This document shows positions 491-7,605 of a stretch of DNA of 11,099 bases, in pieces (the stretch's first letter is position 1; every line of letters starts with the position of its first letter). Position numbers and translations under genes: made by a program. Below the pieces are notes generated by a model, which ran no database searches, had not been told where the DNA came from, and saw only the letters and a list, made by a program, of their open reading frames with translations. The stretch is from a virus. The stretch lies in UHGV virus genome UHGV-0313617; one strand, given 5' to 3'.

Positions 491-2755
491 ATGAGCTTAA
501 TTAAATTCGCTGTAACAAGACCCGCTAAAAAAGGCGAAAAAGCCAGGGCGGAAAACTTCCAGATGACCACCGATGAATTTTTCGAATTTATCAAAGATGC
601 GAAAGAAATCTCCTCGGTGCATATCAACAAGACGGAAGATAAAGCCGAGTATGCGCGCCGCAAGCGTAAGGCCGACGGCATCGTGGCGTATACCAGTGAC
701 GGATTGCGTCGTAAGACCAGTGCGGTGGACCGCTCGATCCTGTTCTTCGATATCGACCGTACCGACACCCGCACCCTACGCCGCTGCCGTAAGGCGTTCA
801 TTGACGCGGGTCTGGAACATGTGTTTCACACCACAACCGGCGACCGTCACCCGCTTAAAGGTGGAACGCGTTGCGCTCGATTCCTGGTGCTCACTGACAA
901 GCCTGTACCGGCTGAAGACCTGGGCCGCGTCCAGTATGCACTATTACACCAACTGGGTCTGTCAGATGTGGACTTCGACGATTGCACGAAAGACACAAAC
1001 CGCCTGATGTACCTGCCACACCAGCAGTCTGTTATTAAGTGCCACTATGGCAAGCGCGCCCGCGTCCGTCGTCTGCTCCGCCTGGCTGACAAGCTGGGGG
1101 TGGAAAAAGAGGAAGTACGCCGCGAGCTTACCCAGGGCGACGACGCAGTGGCAGACGGTATTCTGGACTGGTGCTTCCAGGCAGGATTCGAGGAGTTATC
1201 TTCCGGGCGGGGCTATGAAGTGCCGTGCCCGAACGAACATCTGCACAGCGGCGAAGGGTCCACCGCTATTATGGTCAAGGATGGCGAGATCCGTTTCAAG
1301 TGTATGCACACCGGCAACGAGTGTTGCTCGGAACTGAACAGACACCAGCACCTGGCGCTGCGTCTTATCGGGATCCCGGACCACCTGAACGTCGAGCCAC
1401 ACAATATGTCCCGTAAGCAAATCGCCGCCATCCTTCCGGGGCTGGACGACGAGGAAGTCGAATCCTTATATGAACATATTGTTGATGCGGTTGGCGACGG
1501 CGAAGAATACGGCGTGTGCACCGATGCGGATCTGGATAACGAGCCGGTTGCGCTGTTCAGTAAGCACGACCCGATTATCGAGGGGTTGATTAACTTTAAA
1601 TCGACCTGGTACATGGCGGGTGAGTCGAATATAGGTAAGTCTTTCTACGTGCTGGGCCAGATGGGCGCGGTTGCCGCGGGTATTCCGTTTGGCGGTGCGA
1701 AGGTCGTCCAGTCTCATTGCTTCTATTTTGACGCGGAAGGTGGCGAAGCCTCCAACCAGCGTAAAGAAGCATTGCAGATTAAATATGAGCACGACCTGGA
1801 CAAGCTGCACATTATAGACCTGCAGTCACGCGGCTGGGATATCACCAGCAAATCAGGCTTGCGCGAAGTTATCAGCTTTATCAACCGCACCGCTAACGGC
1901 GAACCGGTTGGCCTGGTGGCGTTCGACTCACTCAACCAGACTGTTGCGTTGCGGTCCGCTGATGCTAAACCGTTCGACGAGAACAACGCCAGCGATATGG
2001 GTGAAGTGGTCAAAGCGCTGAAGGCCATCGCGGAAAATACAGGTGGCAGTGCGGGCGTCATCCACCACCCGGCTAAAGGTGCAAACGGCAGCAGAACGCC
2101 ACGCGGGTCCGGCGCGCTGCATGGTGCTGTCGATTCTGCGTTCTTCCTGGAACAGCCGGACGACAACCAGCCCGGACAATTGAACCTGTATCACGAAAAG
2201 TCACGTAACGGCATCAAGCAAGCGCCGCGCGGCTTCGTCCTGCTCAAGTGCAAGGTGAAGGTGGATCTCCGCAAGTCAGAAGCGTTCGAGGCGCACCAGT
2301 CCACCAGCACCGGGCCAGACTTTGGCGACGTGGTTGCCGGATGGGACGTCAAGCCGATTGCCTCCACGCCACGCGACGAGACTCTCTACCTCGTACCGGT
2401 TGCCCTGGCACCTTTCGCTATTGAACAGGCGAAGGCGGCGGGCAAGGCCGCGGTTAAGGAAGAGAACACCGCCGGACCGCGCAACGAAAAAGAGAAAGTG
2501 CTTTATGCGGCACTGGAAAAACTGATGGAAGATAACCCGGACCATACTGGATTCAGTAAATCGGCAATTGTCCGCCAGGCGGGACTCGCAAAAGGGGGCA
2601 CGTCGACGAAGGCAATCGACGATATGGTGGAGCGCGGAGTAATAGGTTTTTATACCGATCCGCACACCGGGGCCCTCTATGGGTCGTCTAATTTGGTCAT
2701 CAAATCGGATATCCCTATCACGCTTTCAGCGACCGATGACGATTTAAAAGATTAA
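491..2755 (+). CDS. Replication protein: primase-polymerase-like N-terminal domain, Cys/His zinc-ribbon, RecA-like (AAA_25/RepA-type) ATPase, C-terminal putative winged-helix domain
   Basis: 754-aa ORF. Acidic DxD motif ILFFDIDRTD (nt ~741-764). Cys/His cluster CPNEHLHSG...FKCMHTGNECC (nt ~1225-1325). Walker A GESNIGKS (nt 1619-1642) and Walker B-like LVAFDSL. C-terminal ~100 aa look like a small helical DNA-binding domain. Confidence 0.85.
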   Translation: MSLIKFAVTRPAKKGEKARAENFQMTTDEFFEFIKDAKEISSVHINKTEDKAEYARRKRKADGIVAYTSDGLRRKTSAVDRSILFFDIDRTDTRTLRRCRKAFIDAGLEHVFHTTTGDRHPLKGGTRCARFLVLTDKPVPAEDLGRVQYALLHQLGLSDVDFDDCTKDTNRLMYLPHQQSVIKCHYGKRARVRRLLRLADKLGVEKEEVRRELTQGDDAVADGILDWCFQAGFEELSSGRGYEVPCPNEHLHSGEGSTAIMVKDGEIRFKCMHTGNECCSELNRHQHLALRLIGIPDHLNVEPHNMSRKQIAAILPGLDDEEVESLYEHIVDAVGDGEEYGVCTDADLDNEPVALFSKHDPIIEGLINFKSTWYMAGESNIGKSFYVLGQMGAVAAGIPFGGAKVVQSHCFYFDAEGGEASNQRKEALQIKYEHDLDKLHIIDLQSRGWDITSKSGLREVISFINRTANGEPVGLVAFDSLNQTVALRSADAKPFDENNASDMGEVVKALKAIAENTGGSAGVIHHPAKGANGSRTPRGSGALHGAVDSAFFLEQPDDNQPGQLNLYHEKSRNGIKQAPRGFVLLKCKVKVDLRKSEAFEAHQSTSTGPDFGDVVAGWDVKPIASTPRDETLYLVPVALAPFAIEQAKAAGKAAVKEENTAGPRNEKEKVLYAALEKLMEDNPDHTGFSKSAIVRQAGLAKGGTSTKAIDDMVERGVIGFYTDPHTGALYGSSNLVIKSDIPITLSATDDDLKD

Positions 2756-2830
2756 ATTCTGCGCGCATTGGTTGCCGATATGGGAATTCCCATATCGGTA
2801 AAAGATTAAATTCTGCGCGCATTGGTTGCC
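2745..2830. repeat. Two identical 32-bp direct repeats flanking a 20-bp perfect palindrome
   Basis: TAAAAGATTAAATTCTGCGCGCATTGGTTGCC at 2745-2776 and 2799-2830. The first copy overlaps the stop codon of the replication gene. Between them lies GATATGGGAATTCCCATATC (2777-2796), a perfect palindrome. Each repeat holds the 8-bp palindrome TGCGCGCA and ends in ATTGGTTGCC. Confidence 0.9.
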
Positions 2831-2915
2831 ATTTTGAGTGTTTTTATCTGGTCGTATTGGTTGCCGTGTAGTGTAAATATAGTGAATAGTTATGCAATAA
2901 AACTGCATAAAGTAA

Positions 2916-3018
2916 GCGGGACAAAAAGCGGGACAGACCAGGGGCGGGACAAAGCGGGACAGCACCCCTGTCCCGCCCCGGATGACGCGGCCTGGCGAGG
3001 AGCGGGACAGCGGGACAG
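2916..3018. repeat. Array of seven GCGGGACA(G/A) iteron-like repeats including a perfect 9-bp-stem hairpin
   Basis: Copies at 2916, 2928, 2944, 2954, 3002 and 3010 (forward) and 2968-2976 (inverted). 2954-2976 reads GCGGGACAG-caccc-CTGTCCCGC. An AT-rich stretch (2866-2915) precedes the array. Confidence 0.85.
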
Positions 3019-3024
3019 CACCCC

Positions 3025-3073
3025 AGTCTTTCAGACTAGACGGGGGGTCTGGCACCCCCCTCGTCTGAGACTG
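3025..3073. repeat. Imperfect inverted repeat / hairpin with a GGGGGG...CCCCCC core
   Basis: CAGTCTTTCAGACTAGACGGGGGG-tctggca-CCCCCCTCGTCTGAGACTG. The arms CAGTCT/AGACTG, CAGAC/GTCTG and G6/C6 pair, with bulges. Confidence 0.7.
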
Positions 3074-3232
3074 CATAAAATCCGGGATTGCATAATACAC
3101 GGCAACAAGATGCGAATTGCGGTCGTCGATGAACTAGGCAACCAATGCGAGTTGCAGAATGGTGGGTGAAAAATGCAGTTTGCAGTTTCAGCAGATAGCG
3201 ATCAACTTTTTCATACGCGTGATTAATATTGG

Positions 3233-3261
3233 TTGCGCCCACCCCAGCACCCTGCTATATT
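3233..3261 (+). promoter_or_regulatory. Promoter candidate for the downstream small-gene cluster, overlapped by ATTGGTTGC motifs
   Basis: TTGCGC (3233-3238), 17-nt spacer, TATATT (3256-3261). ATTGGTTGC copies at 3228-3237 and 3259-3268 overlap the -35 and the -10/+1 region. Confidence 0.4.
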
Positions 3262-3289
3262 GGTTGCACACCAACATGAGGACTGAACG

Positions 3290-3595
3290 ATGAGAGCTTT
3301 AATCTGGAATTACACAATGGCGGTGGCGAAGCTGTATGAAGCGAAGCACACAGACAGCAACGCAGACGACGCGCGCCAGGTTGTCATCCTGGCCCAGCAG
3401 GGAATCATGCACGCGTTCGATGATATGTTTGCCAGCCTGGACGAACTGGAACCGCTGCGCGTGGCAATCTGCGAATATGCGATGGCTTTTGCCCGCGAGC
3501 GCCTGGCGTATCGCTTCGGGATCGGTGAGACGGCAGTGACAAACGTCGCCCGGATTAAAGCCCAGCGCGAGCTATTCGCCCAGCTTGCGAAATAA
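3290..3595 (+). CDS. Hypothetical protein
   Basis: 101-aa ORF with a GAGGA Shine-Dalgarno 7 nt upstream of the ATG. No recognisable motif. Confidence 0.6.
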   Translation: MRALIWNYTMAVAKLYEAKHTDSNADDARQVVILAQQGIMHAFDDMFASLDELEPLRVAICEYAMAFARERLAYRFGIGETAVTNVARIKAQRELFAQLAK

Positions 3596-4980: not shown

Positions 4981-4997
4981 TTATGCAAGCGTGATAT

Positions 4998-5032
4998 AGT
5001 CCCAGTGAGATAAAACTTACTGGGACTTTTTT
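4998..5032 (+). terminator. Rho-independent terminator candidate directly abutting the holin start codon
   Basis: Stem AGTCCCAGT (4998-5006) pairs with ACTGGGACT (5017-5025), followed by TTTTTT (5026-5032). The next base is the ATG at 5033. Confidence 0.6.
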
Positions 5033-5323
5033 ATGGATAAGCTAAACGAGTGGTTATTCGCCCTTGCGTGTCTTGCTGGTGGCTTCGTAGGCGCACGCAT
5101 TCATGGCGAGGCAACGAAAGGGCCGTTGAACTTCGTTTTATATATCGTGGTTGGCTTCCTGTGTGCCATATTTGGTGCTCCAGCTATTGCCGAGTGGTCT
5201 GGTTTGTCTGGCGAGCGCACTGTCGCCGGTTTGGGCTTCGTAACTGCCATCTTCTGGATGCCAATAGCTGACCGGATCCGGGAGACAATTGCGACGCTAC
5301 ACCTTCCGGGGGGCGCGAAATGA
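5033..5323 (+). CDS. Putative holin (three predicted transmembrane segments, charged C-terminus)
   Basis: 96 aa. Hydrophobic segments WLFALACLAGGFVGA, LNFVLYIVVGFLCAIFGAPAIA and VAGLGFVTAIFWMPIA. Sits immediately upstream of the endolysin. Stop overlaps the next start (ATGA). Confidence 0.7.
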   Translation: MDKLNEWLFALACLAGGFVGARIHGEATKGPLNFVLYIVVGFLCAIFGAPAIAEWSGLSGERTVAGLGFVTAIFWMPIADRIRETIATLHLPGGAK

Positions 5324-6059: not shown

Positions 6060-6473
6060 ATGTTAAAAAGCATTCTTGATCATAACGCCGACGCACTTGC
6101 TGCACTGGCTAAAACCGAAGACCCTGGCGCACGCGCTATCATCGCGGACACTATCAGCCATGCAGGCGTCTTTGACGCTAAGCTGCCGAGTGTTCCGGAA
6201 AGAAAGCCCGTGAAAAGTGCTACCGTGACTATCACACCGAATTCAGTCGCAGTTGACGGAACGGCTACTGCTTCTGTTGACGTCTTGCCCGCTGACGCGA
6301 CTAACAAGACAGGGGTCTGGGTGTCTACGAACCCTGCCGGTGCAGAAATCGATGCAAAAACTGGCAAAATCACAGCAAAATCGGCAGGTGGCGTTTATAT
6401 GTTTTGGGTGGCTGCCGACGGTAGTGGGGTGCTGGGGTCTGCGACCATCAACGTAACGGAAAAAGTAGAATAA
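6060..6473 (+). CDS. Big_2 (bacterial Ig-like) domain protein of unknown role
   Basis: 137 aa with a GAGG Shine-Dalgarno 9 nt upstream. The C-terminal ~85 aa (ATVTITPNSVAVDGTATASVDVLPADATNKTGVWVSTNPAGAEIDAKTGKITAKSAGGVYMFWVAADGSGVLGSATINVT) match the Big_2 beta-sandwich pattern. No signal peptide or transmembrane segment. Confidence 0.7.
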   Translation: MLKSILDHNADALAALAKTEDPGARAIIADTISHAGVFDAKLPSVPERKPVKSATVTITPNSVAVDGTATASVDVLPADATNKTGVWVSTNPAGAEIDAKTGKITAKSAGGVYMFWVAADGSGVLGSATINVTEKVE

Positions 6474-6479
6474 AACACA

Positions 6480-6503
6480 AGCCCGGAATCAACCGGGCTT
6501 TTT
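6480..6503 (+). terminator. Rho-independent terminator after the lysis cassette
   Basis: Stem AGCCCGG (6480-6486), loop AATCAA, stem CCGGGCT (6493-6499), then a T-run to 6503. Confidence 0.75.
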
Positions 6504-6508
6504 ATTGC

Positions 6509-6537
6509 TTGACTCGCAACCAACATAGGCCCATACT
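6509..6537 (+). promoter_or_regulatory. Weak promoter candidate carrying two GCAACCAA motifs
   Basis: TTGACT (6509-6514), 17-nt spacer, CATACT (6532-6537, poor -10). GCAACCAA at 6516-6523 and 6538-6545. A strong Shine-Dalgarno (GAGGAGGAGGA, 6548-6558) follows. Confidence 0.35.
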
Positions 6538-6568
6538 GCAACCAAACGAGGAGGAGGAGTAACACATC

Positions 6569-7053: not shown

Positions 7054-7605
7054 ATGGCAGAAATCAAAGTTAAGGGCCGTCGCGCCAAACTGGACGGTAG
7101 AGTGGCAGTTACCCCGCGCCGTAAACCAGGCGAGCAAACCGAACATACCAATCTCGGACCTGAGATCGAATATGGCAAGCGTCGTAAAGGCGGCAAATGT
7201 GGGCGCCCGACAGACTACCGCACTGTGTATTGTGACCAGCTTCGTCGCTATTTCGCCGATGCCGTAGCCTGGCAGATCAACTACTCCGACAAGGGGGCTG
7301 CGCAGGTAATCCCTCGCAACAAAATGCCAACCTTCGGCAGATTTGCCGCGGAAATCGGTGTGGGCGTCGCTTGCCTGTATCGCTGGGCGCGCGCACATGA
7401 GGAGTTCGCCGAGGCGATGGCGGACGCTATGGAATTGCAGAAAACCTTCCTGATGGAAGCTGGCGGCGTGACAATCGCGGCGGGCTTCGCTACGTTCCTG
7501 CTTAAAGCCAACCACGGAGTCCGCGACGATATCCCACTGGATGACGACGAAGATGATAACGGCGACGTCGTTGTTGAGCCTACCGGCAAAGGCCAGGGTG
7601 AGTAA
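7054..7605 (+). CDS. Terminase small subunit
   Basis: 183 aa with an AAGGG Shine-Dalgarno 8 nt upstream. The central region (KMPTFGRFAAEIGVGVACLYRWARAHEEFAEAMADAMELQKTFLMEAGG...FLLKANHG) resembles HTH-type small terminase subunits. Acidic C-terminal tail. Stop overlaps the large-terminase start (TAATG). Confidence 0.75.
   Translation: MAEIKVKGRRAKLDGRVAVTPRRKPGEQTEHTNLGPEIEYGKRRKGGKCGRPTDYRTVYCDQLRRYFADAVAWQINYSDKGAAQVIPRNKMPTFGRFAAEIGVGVACLYRWARAHEEFAEAMADAMELQKTFLMEAGGVTIAAGFATFLLKANHGVRDDIPLDDDEDDNGDVVVEPTGKGQGE

Follow-up and report, generated by a model that had tools for sequence, protein, structure and literature searches.

The stretch of DNA analyzed here (the window) comprises 11,099 nucleotides of the virus genome UHGV-0313617 and comes from a Dhillonvirus, a siphophage of E. 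coli. On its plus strand, positions 491–2755 encode a 754-residue primase-helicase, which we propose as an initiator and which is composed of an N-terminal domain, a helicase, a linker and a predicted winged helix. Behind this gene lies an interval rich in repeats, which is bounded on its right by the first conserved gene on the 3' side (3290–3595, plus strand; 101 residues, PHROG 9839), intact in 18 of 18 relatives. The original prediction, made from the letters alone, had described a 535-bp non-coding region just downstream of the primase-helicase gene; the region is indeed non-coding, while its length, from the stop at 2755 to the gene at 3290, is 534 bp. As set out below, the part from about 2866 to 3110 is probably a replication origin that is recognized by the 754-residue protein itself.

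Within the interval, a conserved core is arranged in the order AT-rich box, iterons, compound hairpin and CACGGCA box. The features that had been listed from the letters were all found in their places, although some of them proved to be variable or to lie outside this core. The AT-rich candidate unwinding element (2866–2915) holds a TGAATAGTTATGCA box (2883–2896) and a TGCATAA (2904–2910). In agreement with the predicted AT-rich stretch beside iterons, its positions 2876–2915 form the most AT-rich 40-mer of the window (78% AT) and abut the first copy of the iteron GCGGGACA. The iteron array (2916–3017, plus strand) contains direct copies at 2916, 2928, 2944, 2954, 3002 and 3010 and an inverted copy at 2969–2976; these seven are among 8 exact copies in the 11-kb window, where shuffled sequences give an expectation of 0.57 per window and none of 200 shuffles reaches 8. 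A ninth base, G, is present in just five of the seven iterons. In an unbiased search for clustered 7-mers in a complete genome, GCGGGACA clusters likewise rank top. As for the proposed check across relatives, 14 close relatives have 5–7 exact copies, and a paralogous second module, described below, retains the four copies on the left and the two on the right. The seven repeats with a perfect hairpin are thus present as predicted, but the inverted iteron that forms this hairpin is not kept in the paralogous copy. To the right of the compound hairpin, positions 3072–3106 (plus strand) hold two TGCATAA repeats (3072–3078 and 3089–3095) and a ACACGGCAAC box (3097–3106). The block had been described as bracketed by CTGCATAAA at 2903 and 3071, and both copies exist, but the second reads CTGAATAAA in about half of the relatives.

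The interval is matched by 159 phage records, nearly all of them Escherichia or Shigella Dhillonvirus, and 143 of the 159 cover at least 80% of it. No match to the module at 2866–3110 was obtained in 5,426 genomes of E. coli or in 72,556 plasmids, and thus no satellite or plasmid that borrows the module was found. A full-text literature search for the repeat sequence returned only noise.

Coding potential was judged from an alignment of 19 Dhillonvirus loci, with the intactness of open reading frames (ORFs) scored in the 18 relatives of the window. The ORF at 2822–3169 (plus strand) is intact in 2 of these and has 54, 49 and 42 variable columns at codon positions 1, 2 and 3, respectively; the ORF at 2744–3100 (minus strand) is intact in none (43, 41 and 52 columns), and that at 3159–3293 (plus strand) in 11 (22, 16 and 19 columns). 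The flanking genes, by comparison, show an excess of variation at third positions, with 13, 5 and 40 variable columns in the 3' end of the helicase gene and 57, 52 and 84 in the gene at 3290. Insertions and deletions of one and two bases are present within the interval. With such poor intactness and no third-position bias, none of the large ORFs in the interval is considered coding, as had been predicted, and a conserved gene across the interval, named beforehand as the finding that would speak against an origin, was looked for in the 18 relatives and not found. The 'hypothetical proteins' annotated over the interval in StarDew (gp50 and gp51), B2 and SECphi18 (gp06 and gp07) were rejected as genes by the ORF-integrity and codon-position tests. 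Nonetheless, the share of invariant columns is 70% in the iterons, 80% in the sites of a dispersed motif, ATTGGTTGC, 86% in the TGAATAGTTATGCA box, 90% in TGCATAA and 77% in the hairpin, as well as 41% in the rest of the interval, compared to 18–19% at the third codon positions of the neighbours. Judging from this alignment, the interval is under selection, as it is conserved above neighbouring third codon positions even though it is non-coding.

The hairpin-capable element of the core is a compound inverted repeat (3024–3073) of the form CAGTC-tt-TCAGAC-ta-GAC-G6-loop-C6-TC-GTCTGA-GACTG, in which the G6/C6 inverted repeat noted earlier forms the inner arms. The stems are kept in 29 of 29 Dhillonvirus copies, with 11 different sequences in the loop, and distant lineages present the same structure with other stems (CATC/GATG, CCTC/GAGG and TCTCC/GGAGA). 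No T-run is found 3' of the compound hairpin. A 'terminator' annotated in phage CS16 corresponds to the iteron hairpin, which is also without a T-run, and was rejected as such.

The same layout recurs with other repeats in homologues that share 37–48% identity with the window protein and are found in viral contigs, in Salmonella phage St162 and in Serratia phage Tsm2. In these relatives, one or two (T)GAATAGTTATGCA elements in AT-rich DNA are followed by short direct and inverted repeats, the compound hairpin, CGGCA[AG]C[AG] and a promoter. At this level of protein identity, the TGAATAGTTATGCA box is kept in loci L024, L026, L029, L053, L150 and L158 and, in inverted orientation, in L156, and the CGGCA[AG]C[AG] box 3' of the hairpin is present in every lineage examined, down to 37% identity. 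An exact scan of IMG/VR for TGAATAGTTATGCA gave mostly chance matches, with L034, L039, L053, L078, L132 and L134 as the only relevant loci. The repeats are lineage-specific (ACGGGACA, AGGGACAA, CGGACAA, CCGACAG, AGGGATAA, GGGGATCA, GGGGATGA, GGGGGAGA, TTCCGCACA, ACTCGCAA and TCGCAA) and, in distant relatives, lie on both sides of the AT-rich box. Where reverse-strand genes have been inserted behind the helicase gene, as in some relatives, the module, often reduced, still lies behind them. Two further contigs, L189 (11491–13996) and L187 (177–4781), have no nucleotide similarity to Dhillonvirus and encode AAA_25 proteins of 752 and 771 residues. Over the helicase core, the 752-residue protein shares 26% identity with that of the window, and about 15 CGGGACAA repeats start directly after its stop. 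On the contig with the 771-residue protein, the repeats number 8 and are placed about 2.1 kb downstream, past three reverse-strand ORFs. A side observation concerns L027, in which the (A)CACGGCA(A/G)CA(A) box is expanded to six tandem GCATGGCA units.

The sole Pfam match of the 754-residue protein is AAA_25, which has the RecA fold, and phmmer against all PDB chains gave no match at E ≤ 0.01. The best structural folds for the helicase, at about residues 355–600, are RepA, DnaB and T7 gp4, and we consider it a RecA-fold helicase of the RepA/DnaB type, similar to superfamily 4 (SF4). Conserved DxD, H and Cys/His motifs are present in the N-terminal domain; it has no match in Pfam or NCBIfam, and fold searches were dominated by the helicase, such that a primase fold was not confirmed and the domain is referred to here as a putative primase. 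A low-confidence linker (residues 619–661) leads to the last 90 or so residues, which are predicted to fold as a winged helix. In a separate model of this domain, residues 665–740 were predicted as helix, strand, helix, helix and beta hairpin, with a mean predicted local distance difference test score (pLDDT) of 78. The codons at 2483–2695 (plus strand) encode residues 665–735 of the domain, and an acidic tail that ends in DDDLKD follows. We propose this domain as the reader of the iterons. A homologue search with the C-terminal 121 residues alone returned two matches and was uninformative, and no separate initiator gene is evident next to the 754-residue gene.

Two side observations on this protein should be mentioned. 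The profile of the C-terminal domain matches BurrH (4cja), a TALE-like repeat protein, at a summed E of 8e-31 over 21 individually weak repeat matches; the shared motif, GFSxx(E/D)I(V/I)KxAGxxGG, corresponds to helix 2 together with the loop that precedes the recognition helix (residues ~688–710, window 2555–2620), and this likeness may reflect chance or convergence. At the other end of the protein (window 491–1540), the homologues P0004, P0006 and P0007 are 96–100% identical to the window protein from the helicase onward and 59–75% identical to it in the N-terminal domain, a mosaicism which suggests, from sequence comparison, recombinational exchange of the putative primase domain.

If the winged helix reads the repeats, the two might be expected to change together, and such a relation was found. 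Between St162 and L026, which have different repeats, the primase and the helicase are each 83% identical and the winged helix 56%; indeed, no other part of the protein has diverged as much as the winged-helix region when lineages differ in their repeats. Among proteins with a repeat in common, such as P0004–P0007, the winged helix is best conserved, with 96–99% identity versus 59–75% in the N-terminal domain. Over 13 lineages, we compared the distance between repeat weight matrices with the distance between protein domains in a Mantel test, and obtained r = 0.45 (p = 0.0012) for the winged helix and r = 0.58 (p = 0.0002) for its helices 2–3, although, as the 13 lineages are related, these p-values overstate their independence. 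The correlations with the N-terminal domain (r = 0.20, p = 0.085) and with the helicase (r = 0.19, p = 0.087) were not significant, and the partial correlation for the winged helix, when controlling for both of these distances, was 0.55. The small helix-turn-helix (HTH) protein encoded upstream was also considered as the iteron binder and was rejected, since it belongs to unrelated families in groups that have GGGACA-type repeats in common and shows no covariation. Even within the group with Cro-type HTH proteins, its correlation with the repeats was r = 0.20 (p = 0.09), compared to r = 0.52 (p = 0.003) for the winged helix. The suggestion that the C-terminal domain binds GCGGGACA is therefore supported by three independent lines, namely the predicted winged helix, the domain-specific covariation and the recurring architecture.

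With the repeats conserved beyond chance, the AT-rich element and the recurring architecture, the central claim of the original prediction, that of an iteron-type origin, is supported. In the mechanism that we propose, the C-terminal winged helices of a presumably hexameric RepA/DnaB-type helicase would bind the seven 8-bp GCGGGACA iterons and so concentrate the protein beside the AT-rich element at 2876–2915, which would melt and allow the helicase to load itself. The N-terminal primase domain would then prime for the family-A DNA polymerase of the phage. The hairpin element at 3024–3073 would become single-stranded early and could act as a priming signal, a loading signal or a boundary, and the second copy of the module, 16.5 kb away, may be a second origin or a cis-acting partner site.

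Several points weigh against such an origin and need to be considered. The literature searched yielded no replication, binding or melting data for this phage group. The covariation comes from 13 lineages that are phylogenetically related, and exceptions to it exist: L024 and L026 have alike recognition helices and quite different repeats, and L187 and L189 share with Dhillonvirus the repeat core CGGGACA(A), yet have dissimilar C-termini. The winged helix is, moreover, a generic fold. The AT-rich element of Dhillonvirus has iterons on one side only, which sets it apart from the origins of Staphylococcus aureus pathogenicity islands (SaPIs) as well as from its own distant relatives. No DnaA-box, IHF or Fis-like consensus was found when the region was searched, although this is neutral for a system that loads itself. 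Finally, the cumulative GC skew of a complete genome reaches its minimum about 3 kb upstream, at the divergent early promoters, and not at the module; as the skew follows gene orientation, however, it is uninformative about the origin. Nonetheless, an iteron-type origin for a self-loading primase-helicase is the best reading of the region, because of the recurring layout, the winged-helix prediction and the domain-specific covariation, and each of the explanations weighed below is less favoured, as each leaves part of the evidence unexplained.

A second module is found in every Dhillonvirus checked, 16.5 kb from the first in complete genomes. It occupies a 383-bp non-coding gap (19258–19640 in SECphi18, L004, NC_073071; 3504–3886 in StarDew locus L185) between the stop of the frameshifted tail assembly chaperone gene (G/GT) and the start of the tape-measure gene. 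The gap holds a box-A-like sequence, in either orientation, TGCATAAA, the four-plus-two arrangement of GCGGGACA and the same hairpin, and it has two extra units of about 77 bp that bear further repeats. In line with two modules per genome, 13 of 16 IMG/VR contigs of Dhillonvirus contain two exact copies of a 22-mer of the hairpin. Orthologous copies of the modules are 83% and 88% identical between genomes, and paralogous copies are 75% identical within a genome and 74% between genomes. Concerted evolution was thus ruled out, and these identities point to an old duplication of which both copies have been maintained without gene conversion. What the paralogous modules have in common is exactly the iterons, TGCATAAA and the hairpin, while their spacers have diverged. 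A seeming third copy in StarDew was rejected, as the third place reported by BLAST belongs to the second module. No second cluster was found in St162, and Tsm2 has only one extra inverted pair. One may tentatively read these data as a two-site origin, in which both modules are bound by the primase-helicase and cooperate, either as two origins that fire or as an origin and a looping partner similar to crr of phage P4, with the hairpin serving the fused primase as a single-strand initiation signal like those of RSF1010. We consider this extension possible rather than probable.

It could also be argued that the repeat array is not an origin but a transcription-control region at the early-to-late boundary, where a phage DNA-binding protein, possibly the winged helix of the helicase in autoregulation, would switch a downstream promoter or would stop or pause read-through at the hairpin. 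That the module separates the replication genes from the block of small, lysis and packaging genes, with the second copy just upstream of the tape-measure gene, is in line with this, as are near-consensus sigma-70 promoters that lie 60–150 bp past the hairpin in distant relatives and are flanked by a co-occurring TTGGYNGC motif, which also flanks other intergenic regions genome-wide. In loci L024, L026, L029 and L053, TTGAC(A/T)-17-TATT(G/A)T stands at the place equivalent to 3226–3267 of the window. In the window itself (plus strand), this place holds an extended -10 sequence, TGCTATATT (3253–3261), with ATTGGTTGC sites that overlap and precede it, and is a possible promoter of the downstream genes, although a consensus scan found no sigma-70 site there. 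The promoters of the relatives, however, being near consensus and lying past a large hairpin at 150–250 bp from the repeats, should need no upstream array of activator sites, and 7–15 irregularly spaced sites are atypical for an operator. Scans of 2500–3500 for sigma-70 promoters and intrinsic terminators returned as many sites as in shuffled sequences and none within the interval, and the hairpin, as noted, lacks a T-run. As the repeats also track the C-terminal domain of the helicase rather than the dedicated small HTH regulator, we regard transcription control as an unlikely function of the array.

The motif that accompanies these promoters should be kept apart from the iterons. ATTGGTTGC has 7 exact copies in the window (2767, 2821, 2856, 3138 on the minus strand, 3228, 3259 and 3793 on the minus strand), of which 6 lie inside 2767–3267, compared to 0.13 expected from shuffles. 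At the left edge of the module, two conserved ATTGGTTGCC sites (2821–2829 and 2856–2864, plus strand) have 80% invariant columns; further copies are found at 2767–2775, inside the insertion described below, and at 3138–3146 (minus strand), 3228–3236 and 3259–3267. SECphi18 contains 16 exact copies of ATTGGTTGC, and those outside the interval are mostly intergenic, upstream of genes and often paired (its positions include 13664, 13677, 34469, 34486, 41716, 41732 and 44756); the context TATATTGGTTGCACACCAACA...GAGGA precedes two different genes of this phage. In distant relatives, TTGG[TC][TCA]GC is found at about -38 and +1 of the near-consensus sigma-70 promoters. We read ATTGGTTGC, on the basis of this distribution, as a separate, dispersed and promoter-associated regulatory motif that borders the module, and not as an origin-specific iteron. 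Variants observed in other lineages (TTGGCTGC, TTGGCCGC and TTGGCAGC) are often paired around the promoter -35 and +1, and motifs of this type are kept across lineages whose small HTH regulators are unrelated.

A further explanation is that function resides in an RNA or single-strand structure, in which the compound hairpin and the repeats at its sides would act as a stabilizer of mRNA 3' ends, a processing site or an antitermination element in long operons. The stems that are invariant around a free loop in 29 copies would fit such an element, as would the lineage-specific stem sequences with retained structure, and each of the two copies is located inside a long co-directional transcription unit or at its end. 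Structure alone, however, leaves the 7–15 direct repeats, the AT-rich box and the covariation with a protein domain unexplained, and inverted repeats in DNA are indistinguishable from RNA helices in these data. A scan of the window with Rfam 15 gave no match in 2745–3289, even at E ≤ 1. Folding of 3018–3110 and its equivalents in 7 other lineages, moreover, favoured the non-transcribed minus strand in 7 of 8 comparisons, with a predicted gain in stability of 3 to 11 kcal/mol. According to the folding model, this difference implies G-T or G-U wobble pairs on the minus strand, and it is weak evidence for a signal in single-stranded DNA rather than for an mRNA element. An RNA element as the functional unit appears quite improbable.

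Known packaging (pac) sites, such as that of P1, hold clustered short repeats. That the repeats of the window are a pac recognition site for the terminase is nonetheless very improbable, even though Dhillonvirus BF9 was assigned a headful pac mechanism by PhageTerm (PMC10059673), since the module is separated by 4.3 kb from the small-terminase gene downstream (at 7054) and has a second copy 16.5 kb away. In all lineages, moreover, it accompanies the helicase gene rather than the terminase genes, and it covaries with the C-terminus of the helicase and is not the start of any of the public records listed.

The proposed origin can be compared with several known systems. In SaPIs, the C-terminal winged helix of Rep or PriRep5 binds 6–12 short iterons located directly downstream of rep around an AT-rich region; Rep has a helicase of the AAA+ type that translocates 3'-5' and is thought to load itself, and its specificity differs between elements (PMC9371898). 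As proposed for the window, initiator and helicase are one protein (Rep1), in PriRep5 with the primase fused too, and iterons and an AT-rich region lie behind the gene. The motor, however, is AAA+ in SaPIs and a RecA-fold (RepA/DnaB, SF4-like) domain in the 754-residue protein, and no sequence similarity between the two proteins was detected; the SaPI iterons are of 5–6 bp and flank a central AT-rich region, while those of the window are of 8 bp and lie on one side only. Phage P4 alpha, with which the original prediction had drawn an analogy, consists of a DnaG-like primase and a superfamily 3 (SF3) helicase, and its C-terminal origin-binding domain binds octamer repeats at ori and at a distant site, crr, that is required in cis. 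The analogy extends to the two separate repeat sites, as Dhillonvirus has two repeat clusters 16.5 kb apart, but it is an analogy only: the P4 helicase is of the SF3 (AAA+) class, while the 754-residue protein matches AAA_25 and, by fold, RepA, and no solved chain by sequence. Because of the different helicase class and the lack of a sequence match, we place the 754-residue protein outside the P4 alpha and SaPI Rep families.

The oriV of RSF1010 is served by three separate proteins (RepA, RepB' and RepC) and has 3.5 iterons of 20 bp. A hexameric helicase of the RepA type is what the 754-residue protein would have in common with this IncQ plasmid, and the single-strand initiation hairpins of RSF1010 may have a counterpart in the conserved hairpin-capable element with its variable loop, which is a candidate signal for the primase. 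In Dhillonvirus, however, one polypeptide of 754 residues would carry all three proposed activities and the 7 repeats are of 8 bp, and the module is thus not considered an IncQ system. In the origins of SPP1 (oriL and oriR, bound by G38P) and lambda (bound by O), the initiator binds repeated boxes by AT-rich DNA within or beside the replication genes, and SPP1 has a second origin copy in its late region. An initiator of the phage's own, repeated boxes and AT-rich DNA would be shared features, but neither G38P nor lambda O is a helicase, and both depend on a separate loader and a separate helicase, while the initiator proposed here is the helicase itself. No origin in Dhillonvirus or Guernseyvirinae is described in the literature searched, and the region looks like an undescribed candidate origin of the familiar iteron type, with a protein from outside the P4 alpha and SaPI Rep families.

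Other features of the locus should be considered separately. The duplicated 32-mer around a perfect 20-bp palindrome, which had been counted as part of the origin-like block, is present at 2745–2830 (plus strand; 32-mers at 2745–2776 and 2799–2830, palindrome GATATGGGAATTCCCATATC at 2777–2796), with 100% identity between the two copies and a degenerate third copy at 2834–2865, but it is not a conserved part of the module. Its first 54 bp, containing the first 32-mer and the palindrome, form an insertion that re-creates the last codons and the stop of the gene. As these 54 bp are missing in 9 of the 18 relatives, the pair is dispensable and, by this alignment, outside the conserved core. The polymorphic stretch at 2745–2798 combines a palindromic core of 22 bp, which includes an EcoRI site, with a duplicate of the last 32 bp around the helicase stop, and appears to have arisen by slippage or as a small insertion that duplicated its target.

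In the rightward early operon of complete genomes such as that of SECphi18, the 754-residue gene comes second, after the small HTH gene. The leftward operon opposite to it encodes a family-A DNA polymerase, an SSB-like protein, a nuclease and an SNF2 helicase, and rightward of the interval small genes are followed by lysis, terminase and structural genes. In loci L002, L013 and L016, an extra small gene is present between the equivalents of window positions 3284 and 3290, after the promoter-like region, and is flanked by a duplicated GAAC..ATG junction. Elsewhere in the window, at 4982–5034 and 6380–6550, sub-threshold Rfam matches to NsiR1 (28 bits) and Trp_leader (24–26 bits) are probably merely intergenic hairpins or terminators.

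Dhillonviruses and the related Guernseyvirinae (Kagunavirus and Jersey-like phages) are among the most often isolated phages of E. coli and Salmonella, and are present in the BASEL collection and in phage-therapy work. If the origin reading is true, an origin of about 250 bp and the domain that reads it would lend themselves to minimal replicons and to origin-targeted engineering, and would aid in interpreting defence systems that sense or block phage replication. The matched pairs of repeats and winged helices would form a natural data set on the evolution of initiator specificity, and the copy in the tail operon would be a tractable case of origin duplication. Should the two-site version hold, a lytic siphophage would replicate in a plasmid-style manner that is independent of the host initiator and capable of strand displacement, and its specificity might be reprogrammed by swapping a winged helix of about 90 residues together with an 8-bp repeat.

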